Positions 1 to 39,678 of a stretch of 64,000 bases of DNA are shown here, piece after piece (the first letter of the stretch is position 1; each line of letters starts with the position of its first letter). The stretch lies in contig CAKKRM010000001.1 of the NCBI GenBank assembly GCA_919902735.1, positions 32,100 through 96,099 of the forward strand, given 5' to 3'. This DNA is from Anaerolineales bacterium (lineage in GTDB: Bacteria; Chloroflexota; Anaerolineae; Anaerolineales; Villigracilaceae). Made by a program: the position numbers and the translations under genes. A model generated the notes under the pieces. That model ran no database searches and was not told where the DNA came from. It saw nothing but the letters and a program-made list of their open reading frames with translations.

Positions 1-339
1 TTTAATGCCATTTTTTAAAGCCCAGGCAAAAGATGTCTCCATCAACTTATATCCAATCTTTTGATTTCTATAGTTTGGCAACAACCCAATTCCTAATTCT
101 CCAAAGTTCCTATCGATGTTACATTTTTCTGGAAATATACGGCACCATCCAATAACTACATCGTTTTCTTCTGCGACAAAAAGAGCATGCATTTGGCAAT
201 TCGAATTTGAAAAAGCATGAAGCCATTGATAAGTAGGAATAAAACTTTTTGCATCCATCCATTTGCTCTCGGCACACACCAAACCAATAACCATTTCAAT
301 TCTTGTTCTATCTTTTGGCGAATACAAACGACTTACCAT
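1..339 (-). CDS. GNAT-family N-acetyltransferase (C-terminal part lies beyond the window start)
   Basis: Not in the ORF track because it is open at the window edge. Hand translation of the minus strand from ATG 339..337 gives MVSRLYSPKDRTRIEMVIGLVCAESKWMDAKSF...ALFVAEENDVVIGWCRIFPEK...GELGIGLLPNYRNQKIGYKLMETSFAWALKNGIK with no stop through position 1. RNQKIGYKLM fits GNAT motif A (Q/R-x-x-G-x-G/A). The ATG overlaps the stop (335..333) of the upstream gene by 7 nt. Confidence 0.55.
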   Translation of the reverse strand, partial: MVSRLYSPKDRTRIEMVIGLVCAESKWMDAKSFIPTYQWLHAFSNSNCQMHALFVAEENDVVIGWCRIFPEKCNIDRNFGELGIGLLPNYRNQKIGYKLMETSFAWALKNGIK

Positions 340-3300
340 AAGAAATTTTCAGCAATAAGCTTCTCGAACGATCTTAGCCCCGCAGCATCAAAATAGTTAT
401 TATGGACCTCATGTGTCCCATCCAAAACCCATCCCATTTCATCAGGATTAAGTGGTCCCAAATATTTATAGATCATTTTTCGTCCTCCCAAAATATCTCT
501 AAAGTCTTTTCCATATTTCTCATTATACGCGACTGATAGTGTCCAGTTATACCCGACCACGTTCAATTGCTTCCTAACTTCATCAACATTGTCTTGCTGA
601 TTCGCCTGTTCATATTTACTAAAAGCCATTTTTCCCAGCAAAAGATATGTCTTGCCAAGCTGGACCCAAAACCAGGGTATAAGCCCTTCGGTACCTAACG
701 GAGGACGCTCTTTAGTGTACAGATATCGATCATCAATCATATCAAAAACAGTATCCACTACTTTTTGAGCTTCGTCAAAATCATTAATATAGTAGTACAT
801 CCATGCCAGGTTCACAAGCGCATCCACACCGCGATATGCAAATTCAACACCAGCACTCGTTACGGCCGACTCAAACGCATCCCTCCCTTTCGTAACAAGA
901 TCCGCCATTCGTGCCTTATCTGATTTCATTCGTCGAGCTGTCTCACGGTATACACAACCTAACTCAATATACGCCTCAGCCAATCTCATCGGTTCCTTCA
1001 CCCTGTCAGTGAAAATACCAACCGCCTCTTTCGCATACTGCTCTGCTAATTCCAGATTCTTAAGCGATTGCTCATCTGTCAGCAGATCTGCAACGTTGGT
1101 CATCCTCCGCAAGGCTTCCGCCAGCGCGTTACACGCCAGACCTATCCCGCGAGGCTGCTCCAAGTCTCGAAAAATGCCCAATGCCTGCTCACAACGAAAA
1201 CGAGCTCGCTCTGGCTGTCCATTTCGAGTTTCAATTAATCCAAATGTAGTAAGGCTCAATGCAATTGCATAACGATGTCCCAACTTGCGGCGCAAATCAA
1301 GTCCATCATCACAGTGAGACATTGCGGCTTGAAAATCACCGATTTCCGCCAATGACCAGGATAGATTGTTCAATGTGTTGGCATGCTCGGATTCAACACG
1401 AAGTTCCCGCCAAAGACGAATGTTCTTTCGATAATACTCAACAGCTTTTGCGAAATCCCCGCGGGAACGATACAAATATCCGGTTATATCCTGAGCATAA
1501 GCCATCAACAGCTTCAGCCGCCACTTATCGAACTCGGGTTCAAACTGATCGGAAAGATGATCCAGAGAGGACAGAACATCCTGCAAAATACTTTCTGCGC
1601 GTTCAAATTCCATACCGCTATAGATCAATGACCAGCTTTCCCAAACCTTCAAGCTAAGGGCAGCAAAGCTCCCCTCTTCCAACAGATCACTACACAGGTT
1701 TCGAAATTGTCCGATCTGTAACAAAGCCCTCTCATACTGTCCATTGGCAATGCTGTTCTTGATCCAGCGAACTCCAATATCTCCATCAATGTACTTTAGA
1801 GCCCCGAGTTCATTTACATCTTTTCTACGGGGTTTCGCAAATTTCAACAACTCATCCCGTAATAATAGCCAGAGATTTATGTCATTGCTTTGAAATGCTT
1901 CTTCTGCCGCCCTGGAATACTCCTGAATCCCTTTTATATAGTTTACCTGAAGGCAGTAGTATACATACTCCACTTGATAACTTTGCAACCGTGCCCGCGC
2001 TACTCGCAACTTTTGTTGTTCAGTTACCAACTGCGCCTTCTGAGCCTCGGCAATCTCCTTCAAAGAGCCTGAAGAGACAAGTCGATTTGTTGCTTTTTGT
2101 AAATCCCCGACAATACGGATCTGTTCCTTGATTTTCTCTTCGTAAAAGCGAACGATCAATTCGTAAGTCTGCTTCACGTTGTGTCTTTGCCTGCCGCTGC
2201 GATGAAGGGTTTGCATGAGACTGTACATCTCATCCTGCAGAAACACCAGGTGATCGATATCACGGATCTTGACGAAAGAAAGACGAAATTCCAGATCCCG
2301 CAGGGTATTAATATATCCTCTTGCCTGCTCAATTTCATCCTCTGTCGGTCGATCTCTCTTGAGGATCCAGGCCAGCAAATCCGCCCCCATTCCCTTCGGT
2401 GTCCATGCCAATGCTTGAATGACATCATCCAGAGGACGACGAATACCCTGAAAGCCATGAATAATAGCTTCCTTGAACTGTGTCTGTTCTCGCCGCAGCC
2501 CTATCTCAGAGTCGGCTTGTTGTTTAATAGTATCAAGCGGGGTACGGATTATTGGAAGTAGTTCCTCGGTCACAGCCAAATAATCTACAAACAAGGAAAG
2601 TAGGAATGGCTGTCCCTCGGATAGATAGTACACAACTTGCCTGATTGCTCGCGGAATTTTCTCCAACCGCTCAGCCACTTGAGGATTCTCAGTCTGTGAA
2701 ATTTCAACCACTGCATTGAAATAATCCAGTGTTTCTGGCTCTGAGAATGTCGGTAATTTTATGAGGGTGAACTTTATTTCTTTGGCTTCTTCCAGCTTGC
2801 GCAGTTCATCTTCAAGCTGGGGTGACTCTGGACGACCTGCGATCAAGACAACCGCATTAGAAATTTTGGGAAGAAAGCTCTTCACCATCCATCCTGCCAC
2901 CCCGATCGGTTCATCCGCAAGCCCTAATGCATCCTGCACTCGATCAATTTCGTACACCAAATTCTCAACAGTATCAAAGGCCAGCACAATTTTGTCATAA
3001 CTTTTCCCAATATCATTAAAGTCACTTATGAAGGCTTCAATCATTCTTGCACGCTGCTGGGTAACCGCCCGTAGGATTTGTGAAAGATCATATTTAACAT
3101 GATCCAACTCAGTATATTGTCTAACATAATTGCTGAAGTTGTCGTCGTGATGATCCAGCACTTCGACAATATCTGCAATTACTCCCTCTTCATTATGGGT
3201 ATATGTATGATACAGATCCACAAGCCGGGATGCGGAAAGGATTTTTGATGAGGACCATGCCCCTTTCTCATCAACCTTCAATTTCTTCAACACATCATCC

Positions 3301-3458
3301 AGCAGGCGAGTCTTTCCCCAGCCACCAGGAGCAGTGATATAGAACACATGCGGTTTATCCGATTTACTATTTATGGCGTCATGGATATCTTTGAGTATAT
3401 CCTCACGCCCAATCAATTCAGGAGTGGCACGAACACTGGTGTATTGTTCTATTATCAT
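333..3458 (-). CDS. STAND-type P-loop NTPase with C-terminal TPR-like repeat array, copy 1 (1041 aa)
   Basis: Walker A ITAPGGWGKTRLL near residue 45, Walker B-like KIVLAFDTVENL, then VVLIAGRP. The C-terminal ~450 aa consist of TPR-like helical repeats (AKAVEYYRKNIRLWRELR; NTLNNLSWSLAEIGDFQAAMSHCDDGLDLRRKLG; GLACNALAEALRRM). No effector domain precedes the P-loop. TGAaatATG junction with the upstream gene, and an AAGGA SD lies inside that gene. Confidence 0.85.
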   Translation of the reverse strand: MIIEQYTSVRATPELIGREDILKDIHDAINSKSDKPHVFYITAPGGWGKTRLLDDVLKKLKVDEKGAWSSSKILSASRLVDLYHTYTHNEEGVIADIVEVLDHHDDNFSNYVRQYTELDHVKYDLSQILRAVTQQRARMIEAFISDFNDIGKSYDKIVLAFDTVENLVYEIDRVQDALGLADEPIGVAGWMVKSFLPKISNAVVLIAGRPESPQLEDELRKLEEAKEIKFTLIKLPTFSEPETLDYFNAVVEISQTENPQVAERLEKIPRAIRQVVYYLSEGQPFLLSLFVDYLAVTEELLPIIRTPLDTIKQQADSEIGLRREQTQFKEAIIHGFQGIRRPLDDVIQALAWTPKGMGADLLAWILKRDRPTEDEIEQARGYINTLRDLEFRLSFVKIRDIDHLVFLQDEMYSLMQTLHRSGRQRHNVKQTYELIVRFYEEKIKEQIRIVGDLQKATNRLVSSGSLKEIAEAQKAQLVTEQQKLRVARARLQSYQVEYVYYCLQVNYIKGIQEYSRAAEEAFQSNDINLWLLLRDELLKFAKPRRKDVNELGALKYIDGDIGVRWIKNSIANGQYERALLQIGQFRNLCSDLLEEGSFAALSLKVWESWSLIYSGMEFERAESILQDVLSSLDHLSDQFEPEFDKWRLKLLMAYAQDITGYLYRSRGDFAKAVEYYRKNIRLWRELRVESEHANTLNNLSWSLAEIGDFQAAMSHCDDGLDLRRKLGHRYAIALSLTTFGLIETRNGQPERARFRCEQALGIFRDLEQPRGIGLACNALAEALRRMTNVADLLTDEQSLKNLELAEQYAKEAVGIFTDRVKEPMRLAEAYIELGCVYRETARRMKSDKARMADLVTKGRDAFESAVTSAGVEFAYRGVDALVNLAWMYYYINDFDEAQKVVDTVFDMIDDRYLYTKERPPLGTEGLIPWFWVQLGKTYLLLGKMAFSKYEQANQQDNVDEVRKQLNVVGYNWTLSVAYNEKYGKDFRDILGGRKMIYKYLGPLNPDEMGWVLDGTHEVHNNYFDAAGLRSFEKLIAENFLW

Positions 3459-4033
3459 ATTTCAGTCCTTCGCTTCACAGTCCGCAGGGTCAAATCCGGC
3501 CTGTTCCAATTTGGCTCTGTGATACGCTGCTTTATTCCGAAAGATATCCGAGTCGTATTCATCTGCCCAGCCTGTATACATTTTCATTGCAGTGCAGTGC
3601 AAGGTATGCCGCAATTCATTATCTCGAATCTGTATTTCTTGTTCAAGGGTAGTTCTGGTTTGTTCTTCAATTGCATAAGCATTCTTGCTCATGTCCCAAG
3701 CTATCAATTTTCCCGGACCGATTTGGATGTTGGTCAAAATCGAAAAGAGGGAAATACTTCGCTTCACATCCCAATTTCCACTTAAATTCTTGTGAGCTGC
3801 AAGTAAAAAAGGTACTTCATATTCCTTATCAAAATCCGGCAAGACACAAAGTGCTTCCAAAGCAGGCAACAACTCGGCAGCGAGGTTTGCTGGCAAGCCT
3901 GTGCCTGCCTTACCTATAGCTTCATAAAATTCACGGTTACAGGCCCGGATCGCATCAAGTTCAACAATTTCAGGCGGATTACCTCTGGCTTGATCTAGGA
4001 TATTCTTATTTATCCCTGGTGAGCCACCACTTA
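418..4033. repeat. 3,616-bp perfect direct repeat, copy 1
   Basis: Identical to 8058..11673 (offset 7,640). Supporting observations are identical main-frame proteins, identical shadow ORFs in other frames (e.g. 1009..1272 = 8649..8912; 3348..3785 = 10988..11425) and line-by-line spot checks. Identity begins at 418/8058; the first mismatch is at 4034/11674; similarity decays after 4065/11705. Confidence 0.9.
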
Positions 4034-4709
4034 TTTCAAAAATCTGATCTGTAAGATGTTTAGCAGCGGGGTTTTCATTTAAAACCTGAAGTTCAGTATG
4101 TTCATGATTAAATGCGCCAAGGTTTCTTATATTATCGGCTGTTGGTCGCAAATCAAAGTTTTTCCAACCAGTAACTATCGAACGACCCGTTAAGAAAAAA
4201 ATAGATTTTGGAAAATTCAACCAAAGTGCCAACATATAATCTTCCAATGCCTCCACCATATCCCTCTTAAGTATATCAACTTCATCAATCAAAAAAACAA
4301 CAGCCTTATCTCTCTGCAATGTTTCAATATTCCCTTGCAATCTACTTGCGTATTGTGCAACAGCTTCAATAGTTATATCGTCATTATCCAAAGGCTGGAC
4401 TCCTAGATGCGTATCAATCTGTAATTCGAACGCTCTAAAAACTCTTTCTACAAACATCTCAACTGGTAATGTTGCATAATCAAGAAATGAAATATTAAAT
4501 GAACAGGATGTCGGCAATTCATGGGTTAGGCAATATTCATATCTCCGCAAGAGACTAGTCTTCCCGATTGAAGCCATTCCAACAAGGTGAAATACTCGCT
4601 TACTAGCATCAATTTTTTCTGATTTTAAAACAGATAATACGAGGCTTTTTAAAAACTCAACATCTTCTTCCCGATCAATAAAACGAGGAAGTTCAAAGGG
4701 CAACATCAT
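3462..4709 (-). CDS. P-loop ATPase, 415 aa, copy 1 (mosaic paralog of 11102..12349)
   Basis: Walker A LVGMASIGKTSLL, Walker B VVFLIDEVD, FFLTGRS. The C-terminal helical half (SGGSPGINKNILDQARGNPPE...) is identical to the paralog. GGGAGG SD before ATGATG. Confidence 0.8.
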   Translation of the reverse strand: MMLPFELPRFIDREEDVEFLKSLVLSVLKSEKIDASKRVFHLVGMASIGKTSLLRRYEYCLTHELPTSCSFNISFLDYATLPVEMFVERVFRAFELQIDTHLGVQPLDNDDITIEAVAQYASRLQGNIETLQRDKAVVFLIDEVDILKRDMVEALEDYMLALWLNFPKSIFFLTGRSIVTGWKNFDLRPTADNIRNLGAFNHEHTELQVLNENPAAKHLTDQIFEISGGSPGINKNILDQARGNPPEIVELDAIRACNREFYEAIGKAGTGLPANLAAELLPALEALCVLPDFDKEYEVPFLLAAHKNLSGNWDVKRSISLFSILTNIQIGPGKLIAWDMSKNAYAIEEQTRTTLEQEIQIRDNELRHTLHCTAMKMYTGWADEYDSDIFRNKAAYHRAKLEQAGFDPADCEAKD

Positions 4710-4802
4710 CTAATACCTCCCAAAGAATAGCATTGAATTCAGTATCATTGTCATCACCTTTGATACAAGAATTTTTGGCGCCCCCTAGATTTCAATGCTA
4801 GG

Positions 4803-6128
4803 TCAGGCGTGACGCGGTTTTAGGGATCGCTCCTTGCGAATCCAATCAACTGCCGCCGCCATATCCTTGGGAGTAAGCTTCTCTTGCACTTCATTTTGAA
4901 CGTGATATACGAATAGTCTATCGACCGTCTTGATCAAATCCCTGGGGTTGGGATTACCAAGCTTTACGATCTCTTGTGCCAACACTTCCTCTGGTGACTG
5001 TTTTGCGCCACGTAAGGGAAGAGAACTGATGGCACGCAGGCTACTGTATTTACCGCCGCTTGCTTCCTGTAGACGTTGCTGAACGACTTCGCCGAGCGCA
5101 TCTGCATCCCATGTAATTGTAGTAACTTCGCTCTTAGAAGTCAATAGAAATTGGAGTTCATCTTGCATTTCAATAGGGAGAAAATATTTCGTAAATATTT
5201 TATTTTCCCGCCATTCATTGTTCTTTTCAAGCAGCCATGATATCGCTTCGACCCCTTTTTTCGCATCTTCTCCGGTCTCCACGTAGCCATCAACACCGTC
5301 AATTAGAATATAAATGGCTTCGTACCCAAGTTTTTCAAGAATAAGTCCTACAATTTTCTCAAATCGTTGCCTAGGCTCAAGCTTTGCAACGGCCGGGTTT
5401 CTGAACTTATTGAGCTGCTCTACCAATAAAATAATATCTTTTTTACTAGGCGGGTTAGGTAATAGGCCAGCGGTTTTGTCAAAAGAATCAAGCAAAGGTT
5501 TTACACTACCTTTATCAACCATTTGCTGAAGATAATCCACAGGAGAGTTGAAATCAAAAATTTGGCAAATTTCCATCAACAAATTCTTATCTTTTATTAT
5601 TGAGGTAGCATGATAAACGAGATATAGCAATAATTCCCGATCAGCAGATTTAGCGAGTCGTTTATAGTGTAAATTAAGACCCAAATTACTATTTTTAACG
5701 GATTCGGGATTAGGCAAATTATAAATAATGGGAAATATTTTCCTCCCATTCTTCCCTACTCGGCAATCCCGTGCTAGTCTTACTCGAAACGCGCTTTTTC
5801 CACTTCCAGGAGGGGCAAACACAAATGATGTAACATCTCCACTTATAGATTTATACTGGTCGTGGTCAACCAAATAGAAGGGAATAAAAGGGTCCTCGCT
5901 AGCATCCAAAGTAGCAAACGGATTTATTTTAAGTCCCACACTATTTAACCATTCTAAGGTGTTTTTATTCATATTCTTATTTGGGGTTATGACAATTGGA
6001 TTTGTGTCAGGAGCCACAACATGGGAATGTGGCGAAGACCTATAATCCGCATCCACAGCTACCTTTGCGGCTTTTATAGCATTCCATAACATGGATGTTG
6101 TTCCAGTTACAACTTCTTCAAATGACAT
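4803..6128 (-). CDS. NACHT/STAND-like P-loop NTPase, 441 aa
   Basis: Walker A FAPPGSGKSAF. Walker B of the NACHT style hhhhDGhD: IYILIDGVDGYVE. An NPF..ASEDP segment lies ~25 aa before the P-loop, shared with the proteins at 6510..7901 and 12346..14841. Confidence 0.8.
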   Translation of the reverse strand: MSFEEVVTGTTSMLWNAIKAAKVAVDADYRSSPHSHVVAPDTNPIVITPNKNMNKNTLEWLNSVGLKINPFATLDASEDPFIPFYLVDHDQYKSISGDVTSFVFAPPGSGKSAFRVRLARDCRVGKNGRKIFPIIYNLPNPESVKNSNLGLNLHYKRLAKSADRELLLYLVYHATSIIKDKNLLMEICQIFDFNSPVDYLQQMVDKGSVKPLLDSFDKTAGLLPNPPSKKDIILLVEQLNKFRNPAVAKLEPRQRFEKIVGLILEKLGYEAIYILIDGVDGYVETGEDAKKGVEAISWLLEKNNEWRENKIFTKYFLPIEMQDELQFLLTSKSEVTTITWDADALGEVVQQRLQEASGGKYSSLRAISSLPLRGAKQSPEEVLAQEIVKLGNPNPRDLIKTVDRLFVYHVQNEVQEKLTPKDMAAAVDWIRKERSLKPRHA

Positions 6129-6509
6129 AACCTCAACCTTTTATCCTTTATTACAAAACATATTTTCAAAAGGGTCACTCTTCCTGCGATGTATGCGCCA
6201 CTTGCAAAAATAAATACGAAGGAAGGGGACACCTTGATACGCAACAAGTACCCAATAAAACAGCAAAGTAATTTAAAGTAACTTCTACTTACCCAAATTG
6301 TCGTTTATTGAGACGAAAAGTTACGCAAAATATTTACTGATCATAAATACAGAATAAGAGATTCAAAAGTAAAAATAGACAACTAATTAAATCCCAACTG
6401 TCTATTGACATCTAGGAAGTCTGTCTATACTACCTATATTATTGGATAAAAAAGCAACAGTAACATGGTAAATTTCTTGTTTGAATCTAACAAAAAACTG
6501 ACAAGACCA

Positions 6510-7901
6510 TTATTGAAAAGCCTGAGTTGACAATCGTATCCCCATGTCCCTCTTGCTTGTAACAAAAACGGGCTCTTTATCTTTCGGATTTGGCTCAACT
6601 ATCTGTCGAATACGATAAATTACTGTATTGATCAGATCATCATATTCCTTGGAAAGAGTGAATTGTTCGCCAAAATCTTTAATTTTATCTTCAGGTACAG
6701 CGAATGGTACATAGGCTTTATAGTAAAGTTCTTTTTTAGTACAGTATCTACCTTGATTTTTATAAAGATAGGAAAATATTGCCCCAACTTCTGCCGAGAG
6801 CATCTTAACCGCTCCCATTCCAACCCTAATCTGGTTCGTCTCAGGATCAAATTTCAGGTTCAAAGATGAACGGCTTCTTGCGTTCTTCCATTCTGCTTTC
6901 GACAGTCTACGTGATTTCCCGCTTGATACTATATCCCAATACGTGGAGACAAGTGGGCGGAAATATTCAAGCCAGCCGCGCGGATTCGACCCTCCGCAAA
7001 CCATAAGCCAAGAGTTGACCTCTTCTGTATTATATATATCACCAATAGACACCACGTCGCCAACAGTGACTGCCAAACGACGTTCAATGATGGAAGACAA
7101 GTACTTTTCATCCCATGACAAGCGAAAAACCATTGCTCTGTCGCGAGTTATGGCAATTGCATCCGCCAATTCCGCTTCAAACTCCATAGGGAGCGCCATT
7201 TTGAATGACAGGTAGGGAATATTAAACATCTTTAGAGTCGAAAGAAGCGAACGAAGAGAATTGACTGCGCTCTTTCTCTGATTTTCAGTAACCCACTCCA
7301 CTCCATCTACCATGATCCAAACACTTGCAAAACCAATCATCTCCATAGCCTTTGTAAACTCGGTGGCAACTACCATCGGATCGAAATCATCCTCAAACAG
7401 ATCATGAGGGAAGCGCTCATTTAATTCATTAAATTGATCTTTTTCTTTTTTGGATAATGCTGATGGCAAAGTCTCAAGAAAATCCTTTTTATCTGCAAAG
7501 CGTTTTACAAACCAAACAAGATACTCCTGAGTAGCAGGAGCGGCTTTGAAGAGTAGGGATGGCTCTTTCGATAGTTTTTCGCCGAATATCCTGACGCATG
7601 AACACAATATATCCAACAGCTGATCCATTGCTAAAGAAGTACTTGGCGCCTTCACCTTTTCTGATGTTACTGGGTGCCAACGTACGATCAATCGCTTTGT
7701 ATTAGTAATGCCATATTGTTCCAGTGCAAGGCAGCTGGCGGTTTTTCCTGATCCAGGTTCGCCAAAAATAACCGTGGAATGATCTCCCTTGAGAAACTCA
7801 AAATCAGGGGGAGGTACAAACGCACGTTGGATCAACCAAGGTTCGGTCTCGGCCTTTTTTGTACTAAAAGCTGACAAACCTAGTTTTTCGATACTTGGCA
7901 T
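6510..7901 (-). CDS. NACHT/STAND-like P-loop NTPase fused to a C-terminal OmpR/PhoB-type winged-helix domain, 463 aa
   Basis: Walker A IFGEPGSGKTAS, Walker B VWIMVDGVEWV. The C-terminus (...YLYKNQGRYCTKKELYYKAY...LINTVIYRIRQIVEPNPKDKEPVFVTSKRDMGIRLS) matches the Trans_reg_C pattern (recognition helix I..LR.K.. then TVRG.GY.L-like wing). Confidence 0.8.
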   Translation of the reverse strand: MPSIEKLGLSAFSTKKAETEPWLIQRAFVPPPDFEFLKGDHSTVIFGEPGSGKTASCLALEQYGITNTKRLIVRWHPVTSEKVKAPSTSLAMDQLLDILCSCVRIFGEKLSKEPSLLFKAAPATQEYLVWFVKRFADKKDFLETLPSALSKKEKDQFNELNERFPHDLFEDDFDPMVVATEFTKAMEMIGFASVWIMVDGVEWVTENQRKSAVNSLRSLLSTLKMFNIPYLSFKMALPMEFEAELADAIAITRDRAMVFRLSWDEKYLSSIIERRLAVTVGDVVSIGDIYNTEEVNSWLMVCGGSNPRGWLEYFRPLVSTYWDIVSSGKSRRLSKAEWKNARSRSSLNLKFDPETNQIRVGMGAVKMLSAEVGAIFSYLYKNQGRYCTKKELYYKAYVPFAVPEDKIKDFGEQFTLSKEYDDLINTVIYRIRQIVEPNPKDKEPVFVTSKRDMGIRLSTQAFQ

Positions 7902-7969
7902 TGTTCCTTCACTTTTATTGATTCTAAAAGAGGCAAATCTTAGTTGAAGTCGCGTTGATTAAAAAATAA

Positions 7970-10900
7970 TTAAAACAATCCAAAGTGTTCATTTACAGAT
8001 GTCTCAAAAGTCTTTAAAGCCACTTCATTATAATAACTATTATAAGCGGAATACACACCATCCAAAACCCATCCCATTTCATCAGGATTAAGTGGTCCCA
8101 AATATTTATAGATCATTTTTCGTCCTCCCAAAATATCTCTAAAGTCTTTTCCATATTTCTCATTATACGCGACTGATAGTGTCCAGTTATACCCGACCAC
8201 GTTCAATTGCTTCCTAACTTCATCAACATTGTCTTGCTGATTCGCCTGTTCATATTTACTAAAAGCCATTTTTCCCAGCAAAAGATATGTCTTGCCAAGC
8301 TGGACCCAAAACCAGGGTATAAGCCCTTCGGTACCTAACGGAGGACGCTCTTTAGTGTACAGATATCGATCATCAATCATATCAAAAACAGTATCCACTA
8401 CTTTTTGAGCTTCGTCAAAATCATTAATATAGTAGTACATCCATGCCAGGTTCACAAGCGCATCCACACCGCGATATGCAAATTCAACACCAGCACTCGT
8501 TACGGCCGACTCAAACGCATCCCTCCCTTTCGTAACAAGATCCGCCATTCGTGCCTTATCTGATTTCATTCGTCGAGCTGTCTCACGGTATACACAACCT
8601 AACTCAATATACGCCTCAGCCAATCTCATCGGTTCCTTCACCCTGTCAGTGAAAATACCAACCGCCTCTTTCGCATACTGCTCTGCTAATTCCAGATTCT
8701 TAAGCGATTGCTCATCTGTCAGCAGATCTGCAACGTTGGTCATCCTCCGCAAGGCTTCCGCCAGCGCGTTACACGCCAGACCTATCCCGCGAGGCTGCTC
8801 CAAGTCTCGAAAAATGCCCAATGCCTGCTCACAACGAAAACGAGCTCGCTCTGGCTGTCCATTTCGAGTTTCAATTAATCCAAATGTAGTAAGGCTCAAT
8901 GCAATTGCATAACGATGTCCCAACTTGCGGCGCAAATCAAGTCCATCATCACAGTGAGACATTGCGGCTTGAAAATCACCGATTTCCGCCAATGACCAGG
9001 ATAGATTGTTCAATGTGTTGGCATGCTCGGATTCAACACGAAGTTCCCGCCAAAGACGAATGTTCTTTCGATAATACTCAACAGCTTTTGCGAAATCCCC
9101 GCGGGAACGATACAAATATCCGGTTATATCCTGAGCATAAGCCATCAACAGCTTCAGCCGCCACTTATCGAACTCGGGTTCAAACTGATCGGAAAGATGA
9201 TCCAGAGAGGACAGAACATCCTGCAAAATACTTTCTGCGCGTTCAAATTCCATACCGCTATAGATCAATGACCAGCTTTCCCAAACCTTCAAGCTAAGGG
9301 CAGCAAAGCTCCCCTCTTCCAACAGATCACTACACAGGTTTCGAAATTGTCCGATCTGTAACAAAGCCCTCTCATACTGTCCATTGGCAATGCTGTTCTT
9401 GATCCAGCGAACTCCAATATCTCCATCAATGTACTTTAGAGCCCCGAGTTCATTTACATCTTTTCTACGGGGTTTCGCAAATTTCAACAACTCATCCCGT
9501 AATAATAGCCAGAGATTTATGTCATTGCTTTGAAATGCTTCTTCTGCCGCCCTGGAATACTCCTGAATCCCTTTTATATAGTTTACCTGAAGGCAGTAGT
9601 ATACATACTCCACTTGATAACTTTGCAACCGTGCCCGCGCTACTCGCAACTTTTGTTGTTCAGTTACCAACTGCGCCTTCTGAGCCTCGGCAATCTCCTT
9701 CAAAGAGCCTGAAGAGACAAGTCGATTTGTTGCTTTTTGTAAATCCCCGACAATACGGATCTGTTCCTTGATTTTCTCTTCGTAAAAGCGAACGATCAAT
9801 TCGTAAGTCTGCTTCACGTTGTGTCTTTGCCTGCCGCTGCGATGAAGGGTTTGCATGAGACTGTACATCTCATCCTGCAGAAACACCAGGTGATCGATAT
9901 CACGGATCTTGACGAAAGAAAGACGAAATTCCAGATCCCGCAGGGTATTAATATATCCTCTTGCCTGCTCAATTTCATCCTCTGTCGGTCGATCTCTCTT
10001 GAGGATCCAGGCCAGCAAATCCGCCCCCATTCCCTTCGGTGTCCATGCCAATGCTTGAATGACATCATCCAGAGGACGACGAATACCCTGAAAGCCATGA
10101 ATAATAGCTTCCTTGAACTGTGTCTGTTCTCGCCGCAGCCCTATCTCAGAGTCGGCTTGTTGTTTAATAGTATCAAGCGGGGTACGGATTATTGGAAGTA
10201 GTTCCTCGGTCACAGCCAAATAATCTACAAACAAGGAAAGTAGGAATGGCTGTCCCTCGGATAGATAGTACACAACTTGCCTGATTGCTCGCGGAATTTT
10301 CTCCAACCGCTCAGCCACTTGAGGATTCTCAGTCTGTGAAATTTCAACCACTGCATTGAAATAATCCAGTGTTTCTGGCTCTGAGAATGTCGGTAATTTT
10401 ATGAGGGTGAACTTTATTTCTTTGGCTTCTTCCAGCTTGCGCAGTTCATCTTCAAGCTGGGGTGACTCTGGACGACCTGCGATCAAGACAACCGCATTAG
10501 AAATTTTGGGAAGAAAGCTCTTCACCATCCATCCTGCCACCCCGATCGGTTCATCCGCAAGCCCTAATGCATCCTGCACTCGATCAATTTCGTACACCAA
10601 ATTCTCAACAGTATCAAAGGCCAGCACAATTTTGTCATAACTTTTCCCAATATCATTAAAGTCACTTATGAAGGCTTCAATCATTCTTGCACGCTGCTGG
10701 GTAACCGCCCGTAGGATTTGTGAAAGATCATATTTAACATGATCCAACTCAGTATATTGTCTAACATAATTGCTGAAGTTGTCGTCGTGATGATCCAGCA
10801 CTTCGACAATATCTGCAATTACTCCCTCTTCATTATGGGTATATGTATGATACAGATCCACAAGCCGGGATGCGGAAAGGATTTTTGATGAGGACCATGC

Positions 10901-11098
10901 CCCTTTCTCATCAACCTTCAATTTCTTCAACACATCATCCAGCAGGCGAGTCTTTCCCCAGCCACCAGGAGCAGTGATATAGAACACATGCGGTTTATCC
11001 GATTTACTATTTATGGCGTCATGGATATCTTTGAGTATATCCTCACGCCCAATCAATTCAGGAGTGGCACGAACACTGGTGTATTGTTCTATTATCAT
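7970..11098 (-). CDS. STAND-type P-loop NTPase with C-terminal TPR-like repeat array, copy 2 (1042 aa)
   Basis: Identical to the 333..3458 product except for the last ~30-35 residues (…GWVLDGVYSAYNSYYNEVALKTFETSVNEHFGLF versus …GWVLDGTHEVHNNYFDAAGLRSFEKLIAENFLW). Confidence 0.85.
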   Translation of the reverse strand: MIIEQYTSVRATPELIGREDILKDIHDAINSKSDKPHVFYITAPGGWGKTRLLDDVLKKLKVDEKGAWSSSKILSASRLVDLYHTYTHNEEGVIADIVEVLDHHDDNFSNYVRQYTELDHVKYDLSQILRAVTQQRARMIEAFISDFNDIGKSYDKIVLAFDTVENLVYEIDRVQDALGLADEPIGVAGWMVKSFLPKISNAVVLIAGRPESPQLEDELRKLEEAKEIKFTLIKLPTFSEPETLDYFNAVVEISQTENPQVAERLEKIPRAIRQVVYYLSEGQPFLLSLFVDYLAVTEELLPIIRTPLDTIKQQADSEIGLRREQTQFKEAIIHGFQGIRRPLDDVIQALAWTPKGMGADLLAWILKRDRPTEDEIEQARGYINTLRDLEFRLSFVKIRDIDHLVFLQDEMYSLMQTLHRSGRQRHNVKQTYELIVRFYEEKIKEQIRIVGDLQKATNRLVSSGSLKEIAEAQKAQLVTEQQKLRVARARLQSYQVEYVYYCLQVNYIKGIQEYSRAAEEAFQSNDINLWLLLRDELLKFAKPRRKDVNELGALKYIDGDIGVRWIKNSIANGQYERALLQIGQFRNLCSDLLEEGSFAALSLKVWESWSLIYSGMEFERAESILQDVLSSLDHLSDQFEPEFDKWRLKLLMAYAQDITGYLYRSRGDFAKAVEYYRKNIRLWRELRVESEHANTLNNLSWSLAEIGDFQAAMSHCDDGLDLRRKLGHRYAIALSLTTFGLIETRNGQPERARFRCEQALGIFRDLEQPRGIGLACNALAEALRRMTNVADLLTDEQSLKNLELAEQYAKEAVGIFTDRVKEPMRLAEAYIELGCVYRETARRMKSDKARMADLVTKGRDAFESAVTSAGVEFAYRGVDALVNLAWMYYYINDFDEAQKVVDTVFDMIDDRYLYTKERPPLGTEGLIPWFWVQLGKTYLLLGKMAFSKYEQANQQDNVDEVRKQLNVVGYNWTLSVAYNEKYGKDFRDILGGRKMIYKYLGPLNPDEMGWVLDGVYSAYNSYYNEVALKTFETSVNEHFGLF

Positions 11099-11673
11099 AT
11101 TTCAGTCCTTCGCTTCACAGTCCGCAGGGTCAAATCCGGCCTGTTCCAATTTGGCTCTGTGATACGCTGCTTTATTCCGAAAGATATCCGAGTCGTATTC
11201 ATCTGCCCAGCCTGTATACATTTTCATTGCAGTGCAGTGCAAGGTATGCCGCAATTCATTATCTCGAATCTGTATTTCTTGTTCAAGGGTAGTTCTGGTT
11301 TGTTCTTCAATTGCATAAGCATTCTTGCTCATGTCCCAAGCTATCAATTTTCCCGGACCGATTTGGATGTTGGTCAAAATCGAAAAGAGGGAAATACTTC
11401 GCTTCACATCCCAATTTCCACTTAAATTCTTGTGAGCTGCAAGTAAAAAAGGTACTTCATATTCCTTATCAAAATCCGGCAAGACACAAAGTGCTTCCAA
11501 AGCAGGCAACAACTCGGCAGCGAGGTTTGCTGGCAAGCCTGTGCCTGCCTTACCTATAGCTTCATAAAATTCACGGTTACAGGCCCGGATCGCATCAAGT
11601 TCAACAATTTCAGGCGGATTACCTCTGGCTTGATCTAGGATATTCTTATTTATCCCTGGTGAGCCACCACTTA
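8058..11673. repeat. 3,616-bp perfect direct repeat, copy 2
   Basis: See 418..4033. Confidence 0.9.
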
Positions 11674-12349
11674 ATTCAAAAATCTGATCTGTAAGATGTT
11701 TAGCATTAGGTTTTTCTCTTACTACTTGAAGTTCTGTATTCTCATAATTAAATTTACTGAGATTCCTGATATTAATACCCGCCATAGGTCGCAAATCAAA
11801 GCTTCTCCAACCCGTAACAACAGAACGCCCCGTTAGTACTAAAACAATATTTGGCTGATTTATTATCGCTTCTAACAAATTGTTTTCAAGCGCATTTATC
11901 TGATCGCTTGAAAGCATATTAACTTCATCCAACAACAAAACAAGGGTTTTTTCTCTTTGAATTTGCTCAAGACCTCTCAAAACCCAACTTGAATAAATAA
12001 ATAGAGTTTGAGGTGCATTTAGGAACGGCGAACTTACAATTAACTCATTTGAAATTTTCTCGTCAATAAACCTCAGCAGTTCGGACAAAAACTTATCAAC
12101 CTCCAAATCTGCATAGCTGCTAAGGTCAATATAAACTGGGAAAAATGATTTTGATTCATCATGCGAGAGCCTATCACAGTACTTTTGCAAGAACCAACTC
12201 TTTCCAATCTGCGATCGTCCAACCATATGTATAATTCTTTGACCGCTACTTAATGCTACGCCTTTAGACACAGCGGATGCAATGCTATGTAAGGACTCAA
12301 TCTCTTCTTCGCGATCAATAAATTCTCCAGGGTTATATAACAGTCTCAT
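11102..12349 (-). CDS. P-loop ATPase, 415 aa, copy 2 (mosaic paralog of 3462..4709)
   Basis: Walker A MVGRSQIGKSWFL, Walker B LVLLLDEVN, LVLTGRS. The N-terminal ~190 aa are only about 40% identical by eye to copy 1, and the C-terminal ~225 aa are identical. ATGA start/stop overlap with 12346..14841. Confidence 0.8.
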   Translation of the reverse strand: MRLLYNPGEFIDREEEIESLHSIASAVSKGVALSSGQRIIHMVGRSQIGKSWFLQKYCDRLSHDESKSFFPVYIDLSSYADLEVDKFLSELLRFIDEKISNELIVSSPFLNAPQTLFIYSSWVLRGLEQIQREKTLVLLLDEVNMLSSDQINALENNLLEAIINQPNIVLVLTGRSVVTGWRSFDLRPMAGINIRNLSKFNYENTELQVVREKPNAKHLTDQIFELSGGSPGINKNILDQARGNPPEIVELDAIRACNREFYEAIGKAGTGLPANLAAELLPALEALCVLPDFDKEYEVPFLLAAHKNLSGNWDVKRSISLFSILTNIQIGPGKLIAWDMSKNAYAIEEQTRTTLEQEIQIRDNELRHTLHCTAMKMYTGWADEYDSDIFRNKAAYHRAKLEQAGFDPADCEAKD

Positions 12350-14841
12350 GATTTTGCTCCTGAAGTTGAAAGGGCACCCCTGGCAATTAAAGCAGCGCGG
12401 ACAATAGAAAATGCTTTCGCATCTAATTTATCAGATTCCTTCAAGCGCTCTTCTGCATAACGAATCAATGCATTTCCATATCGTATTACCTCACGTGGGG
12501 ATCCATTTGTAGCCTCTATTATTAATCCAAATGGATCATTCACTGTTCGCTTATCACACACTGCCGCAAGTTTTTCAAATCTGATTTTAATTACATCGCA
12601 AAGGCGAATATCATTCCATTCAATTTCTTCATAGTTATCTACAAGAACACTGTTTAACTCAAGCTTAAGTCCATCTGGGAGAAACACCTTTAGAAAAAAA
12701 TCAACCCTTGTTAAAGAAAAGGCAAGCTCCACTAATTCTTTTATTGCTTCAACATTATCGGGCAATAGGTATTTACTCCCTATGTCCAGGATACAATATG
12801 TACGATCAAACCCATCTGGTCTGGCCATATAAAGAAGATCCATGATTTCAGCATTATTCAAATTCCTGCTAAATGAATTAATAATTAACCCATTTAACTG
12901 GGCAAGAATTTGTTCCCAATCATCATTGGAAACATGGCCGGATCTCTTAAACGTAACGTTCAAATTCTCCACTGTCCGCGCCTGCTTTATCATAAGCCTA
13001 CCCATAGCTATTTTTTGACTGGTGTCAGCATCTAAAAATCGGCGCGGATTATCCGATACAAAATCAATCAATGAACGCGAAACCGCATCTATGATGCCAT
13101 CCCTAACATTTGGTATATGCTGGAAATTGGAATAAATCGGAAAAGCTCCATTTTCATCAAGACTGGTATTCAGGTAAGCATCCCGGCATTTTTTCACAAG
13201 ATGGTAGGCAGCAGCAGTTTTGCCCATCCCACCCTTACCAAAAACAAACACAGGTCTTGCAAACCCTATACGATTTAGAATGGGGTGATCTACAGTAACA
13301 TTTTCAAATTTCACATCCACCTCTGCAGATTCAGAACCAAATGAAGCACGCTGTGGATCACAGTTGTGAGATTTAAGCCAACTGTAAGCCTGGCGAGAGG
13401 CTTGGTTGTCTTTGCTTTGCCACAAAGATCGCCAAATTATAGGTATTGAACTTATGCGGTTCAGCCCCCTCGCGGCAGTTAGTTCATCATCTTTTATAAT
13501 GCCCCGATATTCCCAATACCTATTAATCATAACTTGTATCTTTAGTAATTTTGCATCTTTCAATAATAAATGACCATGCACACTATCATCACCCAAAACT
13601 TCCAAAATTATCGGAAAGTTTCGGGGAAGAGCAATGTATCTCTGTATGATAGGTAGCAACAGCGGTTTTACCGTTTCTCTCCAACGCACATAAGACTTTA
13701 GAACACAAGCTACTTCTTGAATGGTTATTTCCAAATTTTTTTGAGGGGGGACCATTTTTTGTAACTGGTCTAATAATTGGACATCCTCAGAAAATGAATT
13801 GCTATGGAATTTCCCGGTCAGAAAAAAAATATCTTCAATGATTAGCTTTGCTTCGACGAAGTTTTTATTCTGCCAAAGTTCAAAGATTTCTTTTGTAAGT
13901 AGCCTATGGCAACCCGCAATCTCTAACTGGGAATAAATATCAGAAAAATCGGCAAAACTTTCTTTTTGGCACCGCCCCACAAAATTACGTACAACGAGAA
14001 CCGGGTTATCTGGAAATCCTTTTAATAATTCTTCTTTATATTTCTCCCTGGCTTCATTTCTTTTTTGCTCGATATCTTTTTGTCGCTGCGATAAATAGGT
14101 CACTACACCAGAAATAACACCGGAAACCAATAAAATCATTGAGCTTTTCTGCTCTACGGCGTTATTCATGAAATCTCTTAAAGTCGCCCATAATACAGTT
14201 TCAACATTTACAATGATAATTACTGGCTTTAAAAAAAGCTCTTGAGATTTAAGTGTTATCTCTTTTTCTTCATAATAACCCAACCCTTTAATAATTCTTG
14301 AATTTACAACAATCAATTTAATAGTTTGTGGTGAGTTTGGGCTTTTTACATAAACCTTTAAAGGAATTATTCTTTGAGATGCAATTTCTGGTTCGTCATA
14401 AACTCTTAATTCATTAGGCAAAGTCAATTTTATTGATTCGGGTGGACTCACTTTACATCTAGTGGTAAACGTTATTTCCGCAGGTTTATCGTTTGCCAAA
14501 ATCAATCGAGGATATTCGATTCGCAAACATCGGCCATCCTTGGTTTCTACAACACGAGAATAATTATAATTTTCATAAGGGCTATAAAAAAAAACAATAA
14601 GCCAAATAACAGCCAATACAAACGCCGCTGCAGCAGTAGCAACCGCAATAAATCTAAAAAACCTCTCAACTCCACCAAGCCATAAATCCCCAACTGCGAC
14701 AAAAAATCTAAACGATTTCACAATAGCATTAAGCAATAACTTCCAAACATCTTTAAACCAGAAAAACCAATTAAATTTAAGTCTTCTTGGCGGCATATAA
14801 AAATGTATTTGTTTTCGTAAGCGGCTTAACATAGGAATCAA
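12346..14841 (-). CDS. Membrane-anchored P-loop NTPase, 831 aa
   Basis: Hydrophobic helices FIAVATAAAAFVLAVIWLIVFFY and SSMILLVSGVISGVVTYL bracket a ~140-aa beta-rich segment. A helical region follows, then an ASF..SAE segment, Walker A VFVFGKGGMGKTAAA and a Walker B-like TYCILDIGS. The first in-frame ATG was used as the start, so the start is uncertain. Confidence 0.75.
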   Translation of the reverse strand: MIPMLSRLRKQIHFYMPPRRLKFNWFFWFKDVWKLLLNAIVKSFRFFVAVGDLWLGGVERFFRFIAVATAAAAFVLAVIWLIVFFYSPYENYNYSRVVETKDGRCLRIEYPRLILANDKPAEITFTTRCKVSPPESIKLTLPNELRVYDEPEIASQRIIPLKVYVKSPNSPQTIKLIVVNSRIIKGLGYYEEKEITLKSQELFLKPVIIIVNVETVLWATLRDFMNNAVEQKSSMILLVSGVISGVVTYLSQRQKDIEQKRNEAREKYKEELLKGFPDNPVLVVRNFVGRCQKESFADFSDIYSQLEIAGCHRLLTKEIFELWQNKNFVEAKLIIEDIFFLTGKFHSNSFSEDVQLLDQLQKMVPPQKNLEITIQEVACVLKSYVRWRETVKPLLLPIIQRYIALPRNFPIILEVLGDDSVHGHLLLKDAKLLKIQVMINRYWEYRGIIKDDELTAARGLNRISSIPIIWRSLWQSKDNQASRQAYSWLKSHNCDPQRASFGSESAEVDVKFENVTVDHPILNRIGFARPVFVFGKGGMGKTAAAYHLVKKCRDAYLNTSLDENGAFPIYSNFQHIPNVRDGIIDAVSRSLIDFVSDNPRRFLDADTSQKIAMGRLMIKQARTVENLNVTFKRSGHVSNDDWEQILAQLNGLIINSFSRNLNNAEIMDLLYMARPDGFDRTYCILDIGSKYLLPDNVEAIKELVELAFSLTRVDFFLKVFLPDGLKLELNSVLVDNYEEIEWNDIRLCDVIKIRFEKLAAVCDKRTVNDPFGLIIEATNGSPREVIRYGNALIRYAEERLKESDKLDAKAFSIVRAALIARGALSTSGAKS

Positions 14842-15094
14842 AGCCCTCCAAAAGTAACCATGAAGTTTAATGACGGCCCAAGCTATATTCTTCCAATTAT
14901 ACCGCTCGTCTGGACTTTCATACGGTGAGGTAGCAGTACATCAGCAAACCAGCCAACTTATACTAAAGCAATTTTAGGTTTAATTTTGGTGTCAGATTCG
15001 GGACAGATTCGTTATAGTCAACAGCAAGCAAGGTGTAGGATAGCTCGCCCAGGAAACAAGTATAGTTGGGGCAGATCAAAATCACACACTACAG

Positions 15095-15480
15095 AAAAGA
15101 AAGGATATGTTGCTTATAAACAATTATAACCAAGAATAGTATCAACATCCACTCTCCCACAAAATTCGACCTAAAAGGAGCATAAGGATTGACATCAACT
15201 ACGTGTTTCTGAAAATTTGATGAGCAAGCCACCAAAAAAATCGAACAACCCATCTTCAACTTCCGTAAGGAACAAGCGTAATCGAAGCAAATCAAATTTA
15301 CGTATCAAAGAAAGGAGGTGCTGTTTATAGAATAATCAAAACCAAGAATAGTATCTGCATCCACCATTTTTAAAAATCAAATTTGGAAAGGAGAACAGGA
15401 TTGACGTCAGTTTTAGCCAACAGAATTCGATGAGCAATCCAACAATACTAAAAAATCTATTCTCAACTTTTGTGCGGACA
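15095..15480. repeat. Two imperfect tandem units of ~212 bp in the divergent intergenic region
   Basis: ACCAAGAATAGTATC at 15129 and 15341. Conserved blocks recur in the same order: CATCCAC, AAAGGAG..A..AGGATTGAC(A/G)TCA, GATGAGCAA(G/T)CCA, AAAAAATC, TCTCAACTT. Roughly 65-70% identity by eye, with small indels. Confidence 0.7.
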
Positions 15481-15499
15481 GTCATCACCTGTCCGCACA
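15471..15499. other. Perfect 11-bp-stem hairpin closing the second tandem unit
   Basis: tgtgcggacag / tcatcac / ctgtccgcaca. No clear U-run on either strand, so terminator function is not established. Confidence 0.5.
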
Positions 15500-15726
15500 A
15501 CGTTTAAATTAGAAAAGATATGATTAAAAGTCGACCAGGAAATTGCCGATCAGGAATAAAAGATTGCTGTTAGATTTTGTCAATTTACTTTTTATTATCA
15601 AGTTATGCTTACATCATATATCAACAAGACTTTTGCGGACTAAATAACAGTTTTATTAGGTTGGATTGATGCAAAATATAGATAGAAAGAAATAAATCAA
15701 ATCCAATCAAACAAAAGGAGATAAAC

Positions 15727-16386: not shown

Positions 16387-16618
16387 TATGAAATTGAATT
16401 ACTTTGGTGGAGGATAGCCTGTAAAATCAGGCTATCCTCCACCAAATTTCAATTTTGGACATTGCTTTTGGTCATTCTTCGGAAAATGGTATATAATTTT
16501 CTTCGCTAAGAAATTATGATAATTTAAGGCGGATTTTCCACCTAACGCAATCAATATTTCATCTTCTGACATTATTAAAATATAAAATCTTGACTCCAGA
16601 TTTTCAAGGAGACTTAAA

Positions 16619-16846
16619 ATGTACGAGCAAATGACCACCTGTAAAAAATGTCAAAGCGCAAGGTCAACTGATCTCAAATCTCCTTGCAAGACGTGCGGCG
16701 CACACGCCACATTATTTGGTTATCTTTTTGATGATGAATTCAAAACAGCTATGTGGGCAACAATAATTGTGTCTGGTTTCATTATTTTTGCTTGCCTATC
16801 AGGTATGATTTTTCTTGCAGCACAAAGTTTTCTACTAACAAAATAA
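16619..16846 (+). CDS. Zinc-ribbon membrane protein, 75 aa
   Basis: CKKC...x12...CKTC (CxxC-CxxC) followed by the TM segment WATIIVSGFIIFACLSGMIFLAA. AAGGAGA SD. Confidence 0.6.
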   Translation: MYEQMTTCKKCQSARSTDLKSPCKTCGAHATLFGYLFDDEFKTAMWATIIVSGFIIFACLSGMIFLAAQSFLLTK

Positions 16847-16896
16847 GCCATAAAACCACAAACAGATTCCTTCACGCTAGTAATTGGAGATGAAAT

Positions 16897-17982: not shown

Positions 17983-18042
17983 TCAATAACCTTTACTCTC
18001 AATATTTCTCAAAAGATTATTCTTAGGAATGGAGAAAATGAA

Positions 18043-19026: not shown

Positions 19027-19097
19027 GGGTGGTATAGTGCAACAAATTATCTCATTTTCATCTTCGCTCTATAAAACGGATTAATAAACAAATACTC

Positions 19098-39667: not shown

Positions 39668-39678
39668 GATATAAAAAA

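Follow-up and report, generated by a model that had tools for sequence, protein, structure and literature searches.

The first 16 kb of a 64-kb stretch of an Anaerolineales bacterium contig (CAKKRM010000001.1, positions 32,100 to 96,099; the whole stretch is hereafter the window) hold seven consecutive genes for P-loop nucleoside triphosphatases (NTPases), designated A, B2, C2, D, E, B1 and C1 in the order of transcription and all located on the minus strand. Comparison with related loci makes it very probable that these seven ATPase genes are one end of a larger conserved multi-gene system, whose full form is a divergently transcribed gene for a protein with two transmembrane (TM) segments, u219, facing A-(B-(C))-D-E-B-C-GNAT-rSAM/SPASM, where rSAM denotes a radical S-adenosylmethionine protein; positions 1-16386 of the window hold most of it. 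The system is conserved mainly in Chloroflexota, is probably undescribed, and may be of the multi-NTPase conflict kind, with a probable role as an immune-like switch. The genes of the array are the following:

1 to 339, minus strand: N-terminal 113 codons of a GNAT acetyltransferase gene running past the window edge (Pfam Acetyltransf_1, 41 bits)
333 to 3458, minus strand: C1, 1041 aa, NTPase of the STAND type (AAA_16) carrying a long array of TPRs (Pfam TPR_12, AAA_16, weak nSTAND5)
3462 to 4709, minus strand: B1, 415 aa, P-loop ATPase of the ATPase_2/AAA_22 type whose C-terminal half is helical and conserved (Pfam AAA_22)
4803 to 6128, minus strand: E, predicted ORC/Cdc6-like AAA+ ATPase, 441 aa (AlphaFold2 with Foldseek, NCBIfam)
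6510 to 7901, minus strand: D, 463 aa, predicted ORC/Cdc6-like AAA+ ATPase ending in a putative winged helix of the OmpR/PhoB type (NCBIfam; Trans_reg_C in orthologues)
7970 to 11098, minus strand: C2, second C copy, 1042 aa, departing from C1 only in the last ~25 residues
11102 to 12349, minus strand: B2, second B copy, 415 aa, with a diverged N-terminal half ('after-A' type) and the C-terminal half of B1 (Pfam ATPase_2, 41 bits)
12346 to 14841, minus strand: A, membrane-anchored, predicted ORC/Cdc6-like ATPase, laid out as TM, ~120-aa beta-rich segment, TM, helical region and ATPase

A preliminary description of this DNA had read seven co-directional P-loop NTPase genes followed by a GNAT, and their sizes, motifs and junctions were all recovered as it gave them. 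Each of the seven ATPases carries one canonical Walker A and an hhhhD Walker B. A and B2 overlap in ATGA, both B/C junctions read TGAaatATG, and C1 and the GNAT gene overlap by 7 nt; the remaining gaps measure 68 nt (C2-D), 381 nt (D-E) and 93 nt (E-B1). A has 831 aa from its TTG codon and 828 aa in the public gene call, which uses the ATG at 14832, the likely start. The same description had seen no effector, with only the membrane region of A and the GNAT as effector-like parts. This apparent lack arose because the window ends inside the GNAT gene: a CteB-like rSAM/SPASM gene follows the GNAT beyond the window edge, as it does in every full-length related locus and in a nearly identical strain (L015).

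A scan of one genome per GTDB species with an alignment of E yielded 36 loci, nearly all from Chloroflexota (Anaerolineae, Chloroflexia, Caldilineales, Thermoflexales, Ardenticatenaceae); the corresponding scan with an alignment of B gave nothing that could be confirmed. By tblastn, the order D-E-B-C-(GNAT)-rSAM is present in ~28 of these 36 loci, down to 22-35% identity in E, and ~10 metagenome contigs likewise keep it. Homologues are therefore syntenic outside this genome and across phyla, a point on which the preliminary description had made its proposal depend. The order is A-D-E-B-C-(GNAT)-rSAM in L004/L005 and L009, A-D-E-B-C-GNAT-rSAM in Chloroflexi bacterium CFX2 (L012, SZPK01000031.1), A-B-D-E-B-C-GNAT-rSAM in L002, A-B-D-E-B-C-rSAM in another Chloroflexota genome (L013) and D-E-B(EAD7)-C-GNAT-rSAM in L014, while the seven-gene form A-B-C-D-E-B-C recurs in L001, L007/L008 and L010. 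C always follows B, and in most loci examined an A-type protein of 600-950 aa with N-terminal TM segments and an NPFGPExAE motif is encoded upstream of D. Orthologues of A in seven loci (L041, L042, L043, L044, L046, L048, L050) keep this motif and the TM segments without a canonical GxxxxGK[ST] Walker A; in some members of the family the membrane subunit may lack catalytic activity. Contigs from two other Hainich groundwater metagenome assemblies (L015, L016) represent a 99.4% identical strain with the same seven-gene array. On the longer of them, L015, the array is followed by a 151-aa GNAT, a 515-aa rSAM protein and, at 18278-20890, another STAND protein with TPRs (871 aa). The fastest-evolving components are A and B, with 37-42% identity compared with 63-66% for C and D. 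Conservation does not extend to the flanking genes: 124 open reading frames (ORFs) beside 26 loci fall into 154 Pfam families, of which SPFH/Band_7 domain proteins are the commonest, with 5 of the 124 ORFs. The system behaves as an accessory module complete in itself. Searches of PLSDB plasmids, by megablast with positions 1-15000 and 44000-64000 and by tblastn with E and B, returned no match.

A, D and E had been taken for one NACHT-like family. That they form one family was borne out: E aligns with D over 307 aa in BLASTP (2e-8), and the E profile matches the A profile over A residues 452-789 with an hhalign probability of 98%, while B falls outside the family (hhalign probability 1.3%). The NACHT assignment did not hold, as no NACHT, NB-ARC or nSTAND profile was matched by A, D or E, and the predicted fold of E points elsewhere. 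The AlphaFold2 model of E (predicted local distance difference test, pLDDT, 86) retrieved archaeal Orc1/Cdc6 and eukaryotic ORC subunits at Foldseek ranks 1-4 and 6, each with a probability of 1.0. Because these are the best solved matches of the model, the family looks ORC/Cdc6-like within the AAA+ ATPases. A PDB sequence search with E gave no match. In Pfam, A and E have no family at E<=0.01 and D has only weak ORC-CDC6-like and AAA_22 matches; the ORC-CDC6-like score of D is 17.7 bits against a cut-off of 27, which is exceeded only in a fusion protein (P0247, 31.2 bits). The model of A, built from a three-sequence alignment with a pLDDT of 45, was set aside for fold searches and read for secondary structure only; the hydrophobic segments of A span residues 60-90 and 202-251.

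Two NCBIfam models place the family more closely. NF047389, the 'Sll1717 family P-loop ATPase', scores E at 61.3, D at 57.7 and A at 33.5 bits over near full-length alignments, below its cut-off of 75, and NF053860, an equivalog model for the antiphage protein DS41_1, scores them at 107.5, 74.6 and 28.4 bits, below its cut-off of 370. Judged from these profiles, A, D and E are remote homologues of DS-41 and lie just outside the Sll1717 family as curated. DS-41 ('AAA2', WP_033812887.1) is a single E. coli gene product of 502 aa that was predicted by DefensePredictor and validated against BASEL phages (PMC13092281). It shares with A, D and E the NPF..AE motif ~35 residues before Walker A, the hhhhD[GIK] Walker B and a helical C-terminal part. 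E matches the DS-41 model over its whole length and is collinear with the DS-41 protein (22-31% identity; BLASTP 1e-7 at 22%); the alignment includes the NPF..AE motif to which the preliminary description had drawn attention. However, DS-41 acts as a single gene, whereas here three paralogues, one of them membrane-anchored and one with a winged helix, belong to a system of 8-10 genes. Orc1-5 and Cdc6 likewise make up a set of several ORC paralogues. As in these initiators, several paralogues are encoded together here, and the predicted fold of E comprises an AAA+ base, a lid and a C-terminal helical or winged-helix domain. Nothing ties the system to replication, however, and identity in the structural alignments is ~10%.

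C, which had been described as a STAND NTPase with TPRs in a multi-NTPase system, fits that layout, with an N-terminal P-loop NTPase, including canonical Walker A and B motifs, followed by a TPR array. Its Pfam matches are AAA_16 (27.7 bits, below the cut-off of 32.6), TPR_12 (61 bits), TPR_10, TPR_8 and a weak MalT-type TPR, and its orthologue in L012 scores 25.2 bits against NACHT. Avs proteins use a STAND domain and a repeat array to recognise phage proteins. C shares this arrangement with Avs/AVAST but has no fused nuclease, protease or other effector domain and no Avs match in PADLOC, and it belongs to a multi-gene system. For B, a PDB search with the family profile gave matches at the P-loop level only. 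The same profile detects 1180 representative proteins at E<=1e-3, among which the ATPase is fused to a caspase domain (P0174), TIR (P0187) or EAD7 (P0135, P0150), the last also in the B orthologue of L014. The B proteins of the window carry no EAD, and a scan of two neighbours in L014 yielded no EAD7 partner. B and C are fused in four proteins (P0181, P0207, P0239, P0253) and an ORC-like ATPase and B in one (P0247), while P0137 and P0142 join B to a second B. These B-C and ORC-like-B fusions, together with the coupled or overlapping A/B, B/C and C/GNAT junctions, link the genes to one another.

The rSAM protein combines a CX3CX2C core with the full set of SPASM cysteines. Among solved structures CteB is closest to it, in an alignment that begins at the RRE region and takes in SPASM (residues 98-477, E 1.8e-21). 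Its best NCBIfam matches are PapB (152 against 340 bits), QhpD and Nif11-type maturases, all below their cut-offs. The core, the SPASM cysteines and an N-terminal region aligning with the CteB RRE are shared with CteB, PapB, SkfB and the anaerobic sulfatase maturase. Unlike sacti- and ranthipeptide maturases, the protein falls below every equivalog cut-off, has an extra N-terminus of ~85 aa, lacks an adjacent precursor and is always coupled to the GNAT and the ATPase operon. The GNAT is generic by sequence, and the C/GNAT and GNAT/rSAM genes overlap or abut. Two candidates for a peptide partner were dropped. The C-terminal DPxxC tail of B was abandoned as an rSAM substrate because its cysteine is absent from about half of the rSAM-bearing loci, and a Cys-rich mini-ORF, which L002 and L004 have upstream of E, is unconserved in the window and in L001. 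Downstream of the rSAM gene, small SWIM-zinc-finger-like proteins are encoded in L014 (18836-19111) and L046, and small 2-TM proteins in L032, L033, L041 and L044.

The preliminary description had missed D as a putative DNA-binding regulator with cognate repeats, and also the conserved divergent gene for the 2-TM protein. The orthologues of D in L012 and L014 match Pfam Trans_reg_C (35.0 and 36.8 bits; cut-off 26.2), and the C-terminus of the window D aligns with them, keeping the recognition-helix and wing residues. Candidate binding sites, here called D-boxes, lie in the D-E spacer and in the spacer between A and u219:

6487 to 6503, minus strand: tandem D-box TGTCAGTTTTTTGTTAG of two TGTYAG half-sites spaced by 11 nt, which begins 7 nt beyond the stop codon of D; no other match occurs in the window
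14990 to 14998, plus strand: D-box TGTCAGATT with an imperfect second half-site behind it, between A and u219 and oriented towards u219; position kept in 8 of 9 loci
15568 to 15576, plus strand: second D-box TGTTAGATT, ~150 nt upstream of u219; 8 of 9 loci have such a second box

The tandem motif of the D-E spacer recurs at the same place in the clade of the window and in Chloroflexota loci. Its strict pattern (<=1 mismatch) was found in this spacer in 13 of 27 GTDB loci, compared with 0.034 per kb in the surrounding DNA; in most of the remaining loci, TGYRAG-like repeats of the same 11-nt period, two to five in number, are seen instead. All three exact TGTYAGATT matches of the window fall in intergenic DNA of the system. 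The first D-box of the A-u219 spacer is tandem in Chloroflexota loci and absent from L004. OmpR/PhoB and SARP proteins bind direct repeats one helical turn apart, and by this analogy we infer that D acts as a DNA-binding regulator at the tandem TGYRAG repeats. Scans for a sigma-70 consensus were uninformative. The combination of an NTPase, an OmpR-type winged helix and TPRs, with candidate sites that are direct repeats 11 nt apart near promoters, resembles the AfsR/SARP, MalT, LAL and OmpR/PhoB regulators. The system, however, divides these functions between D and C, and places the winged helix after an ORC-like ATPase instead of before an NB-ARC domain.

The seven-ATPase appearance of the window points to an old extra B-C pair, inserted after A and homogenised with the downstream pair. 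Positions 418-4192 and 8058-11835 are 99.05% identical, with all 37 differences within 4034-4192, so that the 3616-bp tract from 418 to 4033, which covers the C-terminal half of B and almost all of C, is 100% identical to 8058-11673; the paralogy of the two cassettes is thus stronger than had been noted. B1 and B2 are 69% identical overall, with strongly diverged N-terminal halves. In trees of these halves the 'after-A' and 'after-E' copies of the window, L001 and L007 separate, whereas the C-terminal half of B and the whole of C group by genome. In L007 the two B-C pairs share only 73% DNA identity, and the identical core differs by ~1% between the window and L015 while being identical within each strain. 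Because the N-half trees separate the copies, the L007 pairs have diverged and the cores are identical within strains but ~1% apart between them, the second pair is an old and clade-specific addition, and gene conversion appears to have homogenised the pairs repeatedly from the middle of B to near the end of C, recently so in the window. A repeat of 3.6 kb with 100% identity is unusual in a metagenome contig, and collapse during assembly may have contributed to part of the identical tract. The duplicated pair itself could in principle reflect a misresolved repeat or two merged strain variants, an explanation we regard as very improbable: two more contigs, which come from two other assemblies of the 99.4% identical strain, have this order as well, diverged two-copy versions exist in L001, L007 and L010, and outside the identical tract B2 has a diverged N-terminal half, kept as the 'after-A' type, and C2 a distinct tail. 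The seven-gene order is probably no assembly artefact. The preliminary description had drawn another conclusion from the duplication, namely that the functional unit is a cassette X-B-C, found in two copies with either A or E as X, and that its effectors are confined to the membrane region of A or the GNAT. A-B-C and E-B-C do occur together in the window, L001, L007/L008 and L010, and the link between the three proteins stands in so far as an A/E-like protein is found fused to B, B is found fused to C and the N-terminal half of B is position-specific. The repeated triad, however, is not the conserved unit, which is A-D-E-B-C-GNAT-rSAM, a second B or B-C after A being present only in some loci. 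A stands without B-C in L004, L009, L012 and most GTDB loci and is followed by B without C in L002, L013, L019 and L041, and the near-universal D and rSAM have no role in such a model, which is improbable.

For the function of the system, we see about an even chance that it is a nucleoside triphosphate-dependent conflict or immune-like system that regulates itself via D and acts through rSAM/GNAT chemistry. The reasons for the conflict reading are the synteny, the kinship with DS-41, the fusions of B to TIR, caspase and EAD7 domains, the fast evolution of A and B, the defence genes at some loci and the element context. In such a mechanism, C would sense the trigger through its STAND and TPR parts, with B as its NTPase partner or adaptor. 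A would be membrane-anchored with an outward-facing domain, and E would pair with B. D would bind the TGYRAG repeats before the E-B-C-GNAT-rSAM operon and in the A/u219 region, coupling ATPase state to transcription. The GNAT and the CteB/PapB-like, thioether-forming rSAM/SPASM protein, with its RRE-like N-terminal region, would modify a peptide or protein. A more specific version, which we consider possible but distinctly less likely, is that the five AAA+/STAND ATPases form one switch, perhaps as a complex, that induces its own operon and licenses the rSAM and GNAT to modify an effector or target, a D-box-driven RNA being a further component. Conflict systems with several NTPases as presumed threshold switches and rSAM/SPASM proteins as possible peptide modifiers have been catalogued, EAD-coupled STAND proteins among them; they include MoxR-vWA, GTPase and peptidase-cascade systems, to which the mention of rSAM/SPASM proteins is confined, and GNAT is never mentioned (Kaur et al., eLife 2020, PMC7159879). 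The system described here resembles them in its NTPases and its rSAM/SPASM protein, in its enrichment in a filamentous phylum, Chloroflexota, and in that relatives of B are fused to EAD7, TIR and caspase domains. It differs in having no MoxR-vWA pair, VMAP, GTPase or metallopeptidase, and no peptide gene was found. In the literature searched, no described arrangement combines these parts, and searches for Sll1717 and for SPASM with STAND gave nothing beyond Kaur et al.

Several observations weigh against the conflict reading and the assignments on which it builds. The Foldseek matches of E to ORC proteins are weak (E-values 2e-3 to 1e-2, TM-scores 0.35-0.41), and the window D itself has no Trans_reg_C match at E<=0.01. 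PADLOC-DB v2.0.0 gave no system-level match, its hits being a generic TPR (24 bits), PDC-S27 on B2 (15.6 bits) and pVip on the rSAM core (61 bits); together with the sub-threshold NCBIfam scores and the absence of the arrangement from the text of Kaur et al. (2020), this also upholds the earlier statement that it is not a named system. Known defence genes lie beside a minority of loci only, and by simple counts any enrichment would be modest: Type I restriction-modification genes occur in the flanks of 2-3 of 26 loci, Cas8b, PDC-S18 and PDC-S01 each appear a single time, and the other flanking genes are housekeeping or unknown; GmrSD is among the defence genes that flank some loci. The TIR, caspase and EAD7 fusions sit in relatives of the B family. 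When ORFs of 18-130 aa from ~45 loci were clustered for a precursor peptide, only shadows of the large genes and a few non-universal small proteins (2-TM, SWIM-like) emerged, and no peptidase or ABC transporter recurs among the flanking genes.

Two other functions have to be set against the conflict reading. The system could be a cluster for a RiPP, a peptide made on the ribosome and modified after translation, in which a thioether-crosslinked, acetylated peptide would serve as a signal or antibiotic and not against phages, the ATPases would be SARP/LAL/MalT-like regulators, and A and u219 would have roles in sensing, export or immunity. Some RiPP pathways include a GNAT enzyme by which the N-terminus of the peptide is acetylated, and STAND proteins with TPRs and an OmpR-type winged helix, for example AfsR/SARP, regulate secondary-metabolite clusters. 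The rSAM protein, a maturase by its motifs, is indeed closest to CteB, PapB and SkfB and has an RRE-like region; a weak AfsR TPR match (NCBIfam) recalls such regulators, the D-boxes indicate transcriptional control, and the outward-facing domain of A would suit sensing. Nevertheless, no conserved small ORF was found in or near the ~45 loci, where the ORFs of the A-u219 spacer and downstream of the rSAM gene showed nothing consistent, although very short or variable precursors could escape such a comparison, and there is neither a leader peptidase nor an ABC exporter. Five ATPases go far beyond any known cluster-situated regulator, and A, D and E are related to a validated defence gene. As the precursor is missing and immune-type fusions (TIR, caspase, EAD7) exist among the relatives of B, a RiPP-type cluster is weakened to a rather unlikely explanation, if still one of some weight. 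Less likely again, and in our view unlikely, is a signal-transduction or transcription module for an envelope or stress response, in which the switch would act only via D and the rSAM and GNAT would mature a protein of the system itself. Such a module would agree with the winged helix of D and the cognate repeats at all three promoter regions, with A and u219 being membrane proteins, and with the translational coupling of C, GNAT and rSAM, which suggests a stoichiometry matched to C. The patchy distribution and variable contexts, however, are those of an accessory or mobile module, and the DPxxC tail of B, the only internal substrate motif examined, is missing in about half of the rSAM loci.

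Beyond the array, the conserved DNA of the system comprises the intergenic spacers and u219, followed in the window by a block of neighbouring genes:

4710 to 4802, minus strand: E-B spacer of 93 nt with a GTATCA...TGATAC hairpin, nearly identical in length and sequence in 6 loci of the window clade
15020 to 15510, plus strand: candidate non-coding transcription unit with a terminator hairpin at 15470-15500, apparently duplicated internally in tandem in the window
15727 to 16386, plus strand: u219, divergent from A; its 2-TM protein has a coiled coil in the loop and a C-terminal tail that is conserved
16619 to 16846, plus strand: 75-aa protein with a zinc ribbon (CxxC...CxxC) and a TM segment, present in the window clade between u219 and u361
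16897 to 17982, plus strand: u361, SH3_3
18043 to 19026, plus strand: u327
19098 to 22286, plus strand: u1062

The u219 protein has two hydrophobic segments in 6 of the 6 homologues examined, and homologues lie beside the system in the window clade, in four Chloroflexota genomes (L012/L021, L013/L020, L019 and L037), in L014 and, weakly, in L032. A strong terminator with a 19-bp stem (16403-16446) directly follows the gene, which is therefore monocistronic. A perfect intergenic hairpin of 10-16 bp is present in all nine A-u219 spacers, from two clades between which the stem sequence differs. In the 8 loci with a first D-box, the hairpin lies downstream of that box at a distance of ~330 nt (~480 nt in the window). 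It is upstream of the second D-box in 8 of 9 loci, and a T-rich stretch follows it in all 7 loci whose flanks were read. The region between contains no conserved ORF, and four Chloroflexota copies have in common a 44-nt block and a consensus fold in which 12 of 53 pairs are changed on both sides. A non-coding RNA of ~330-480 nt running from D-box to terminator is thus proposed with low confidence, as a lead only because the sequences are few. The 44-nt block could also encode a 6-aa mini-ORF (MPIPND), and GAAAGGAG motifs recur in the A-u219 spacer without ORFs. A metagenome scan for the block returned nothing, and Rfam gave nothing relevant in window positions 1-33000. The E-B spacer was rejected as a structured RNA, its fold being no better than shuffled sequence (z -0.24) with weak covariation with Chloroflexota copies; the loop of its hairpin has AGGTGATGAC in common with the A-u219 spacer hairpin.

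The neighbour block from 16619 to 22286 accompanies the system at 55-67% identity in L002, L004 and L009 and was undetected in the Chloroflexota loci searched; it appears clade-specific, and its membership of the system is uncertain. Further along, a row of plus-strand genes (22776-31873) encodes a 575-aa SUKH/SMI1-KNR4 protein, from a family of immunity proteins, two proteins of unknown function and an 1823-aa DEAD-type helicase with S1 and DUF4397. The system occupies a low-GC block of the window (~35-45% GC), the rest being at ~50% GC. A second low-GC patch (40-44 kb) holds the gene of a 1308-aa QatA-like protein (39964-43890, plus strand) whose N-terminus scores 91.6 bits against a cut-off of 600 and which also matches DS-41 weakly. 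Between 35463 and 64000 are found VirB4-like (37913-39682), VirB11/TadA-like (47560-49008) and ParA/CpaE-like (49011-50429) genes, together with DnaE-like (43986-47003) and DnaN-like (58112-59275) genes, a primase-like fragment (56888-57880) and a Fic gene (53059-54246). From this gene content the ~50% GC part of the window looks like a conjugative element or plasmid. The window contains no tRNA genes.

If the conflict reading is correct, the system would represent a new architecture of defence in which ORC/Cdc6-like ATPases work with STAND proteins, one ATPase directly rewires transcription, and the output is radical-SAM/GNAT chemistry and not a nuclease, TIR or protease. The single-gene DS-41 would, moreover, become part of a broader family that offers clues to its mechanism. 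Should the system instead be a peptide-modification cluster, a RiPP-like enzyme pair would be under unusually complex regulation, in a phylum with little-known natural products. The array is, in addition, a tractable case of concerted evolution, in which sensor-side genes appear to have been duplicated and then homogenised by gene conversion.

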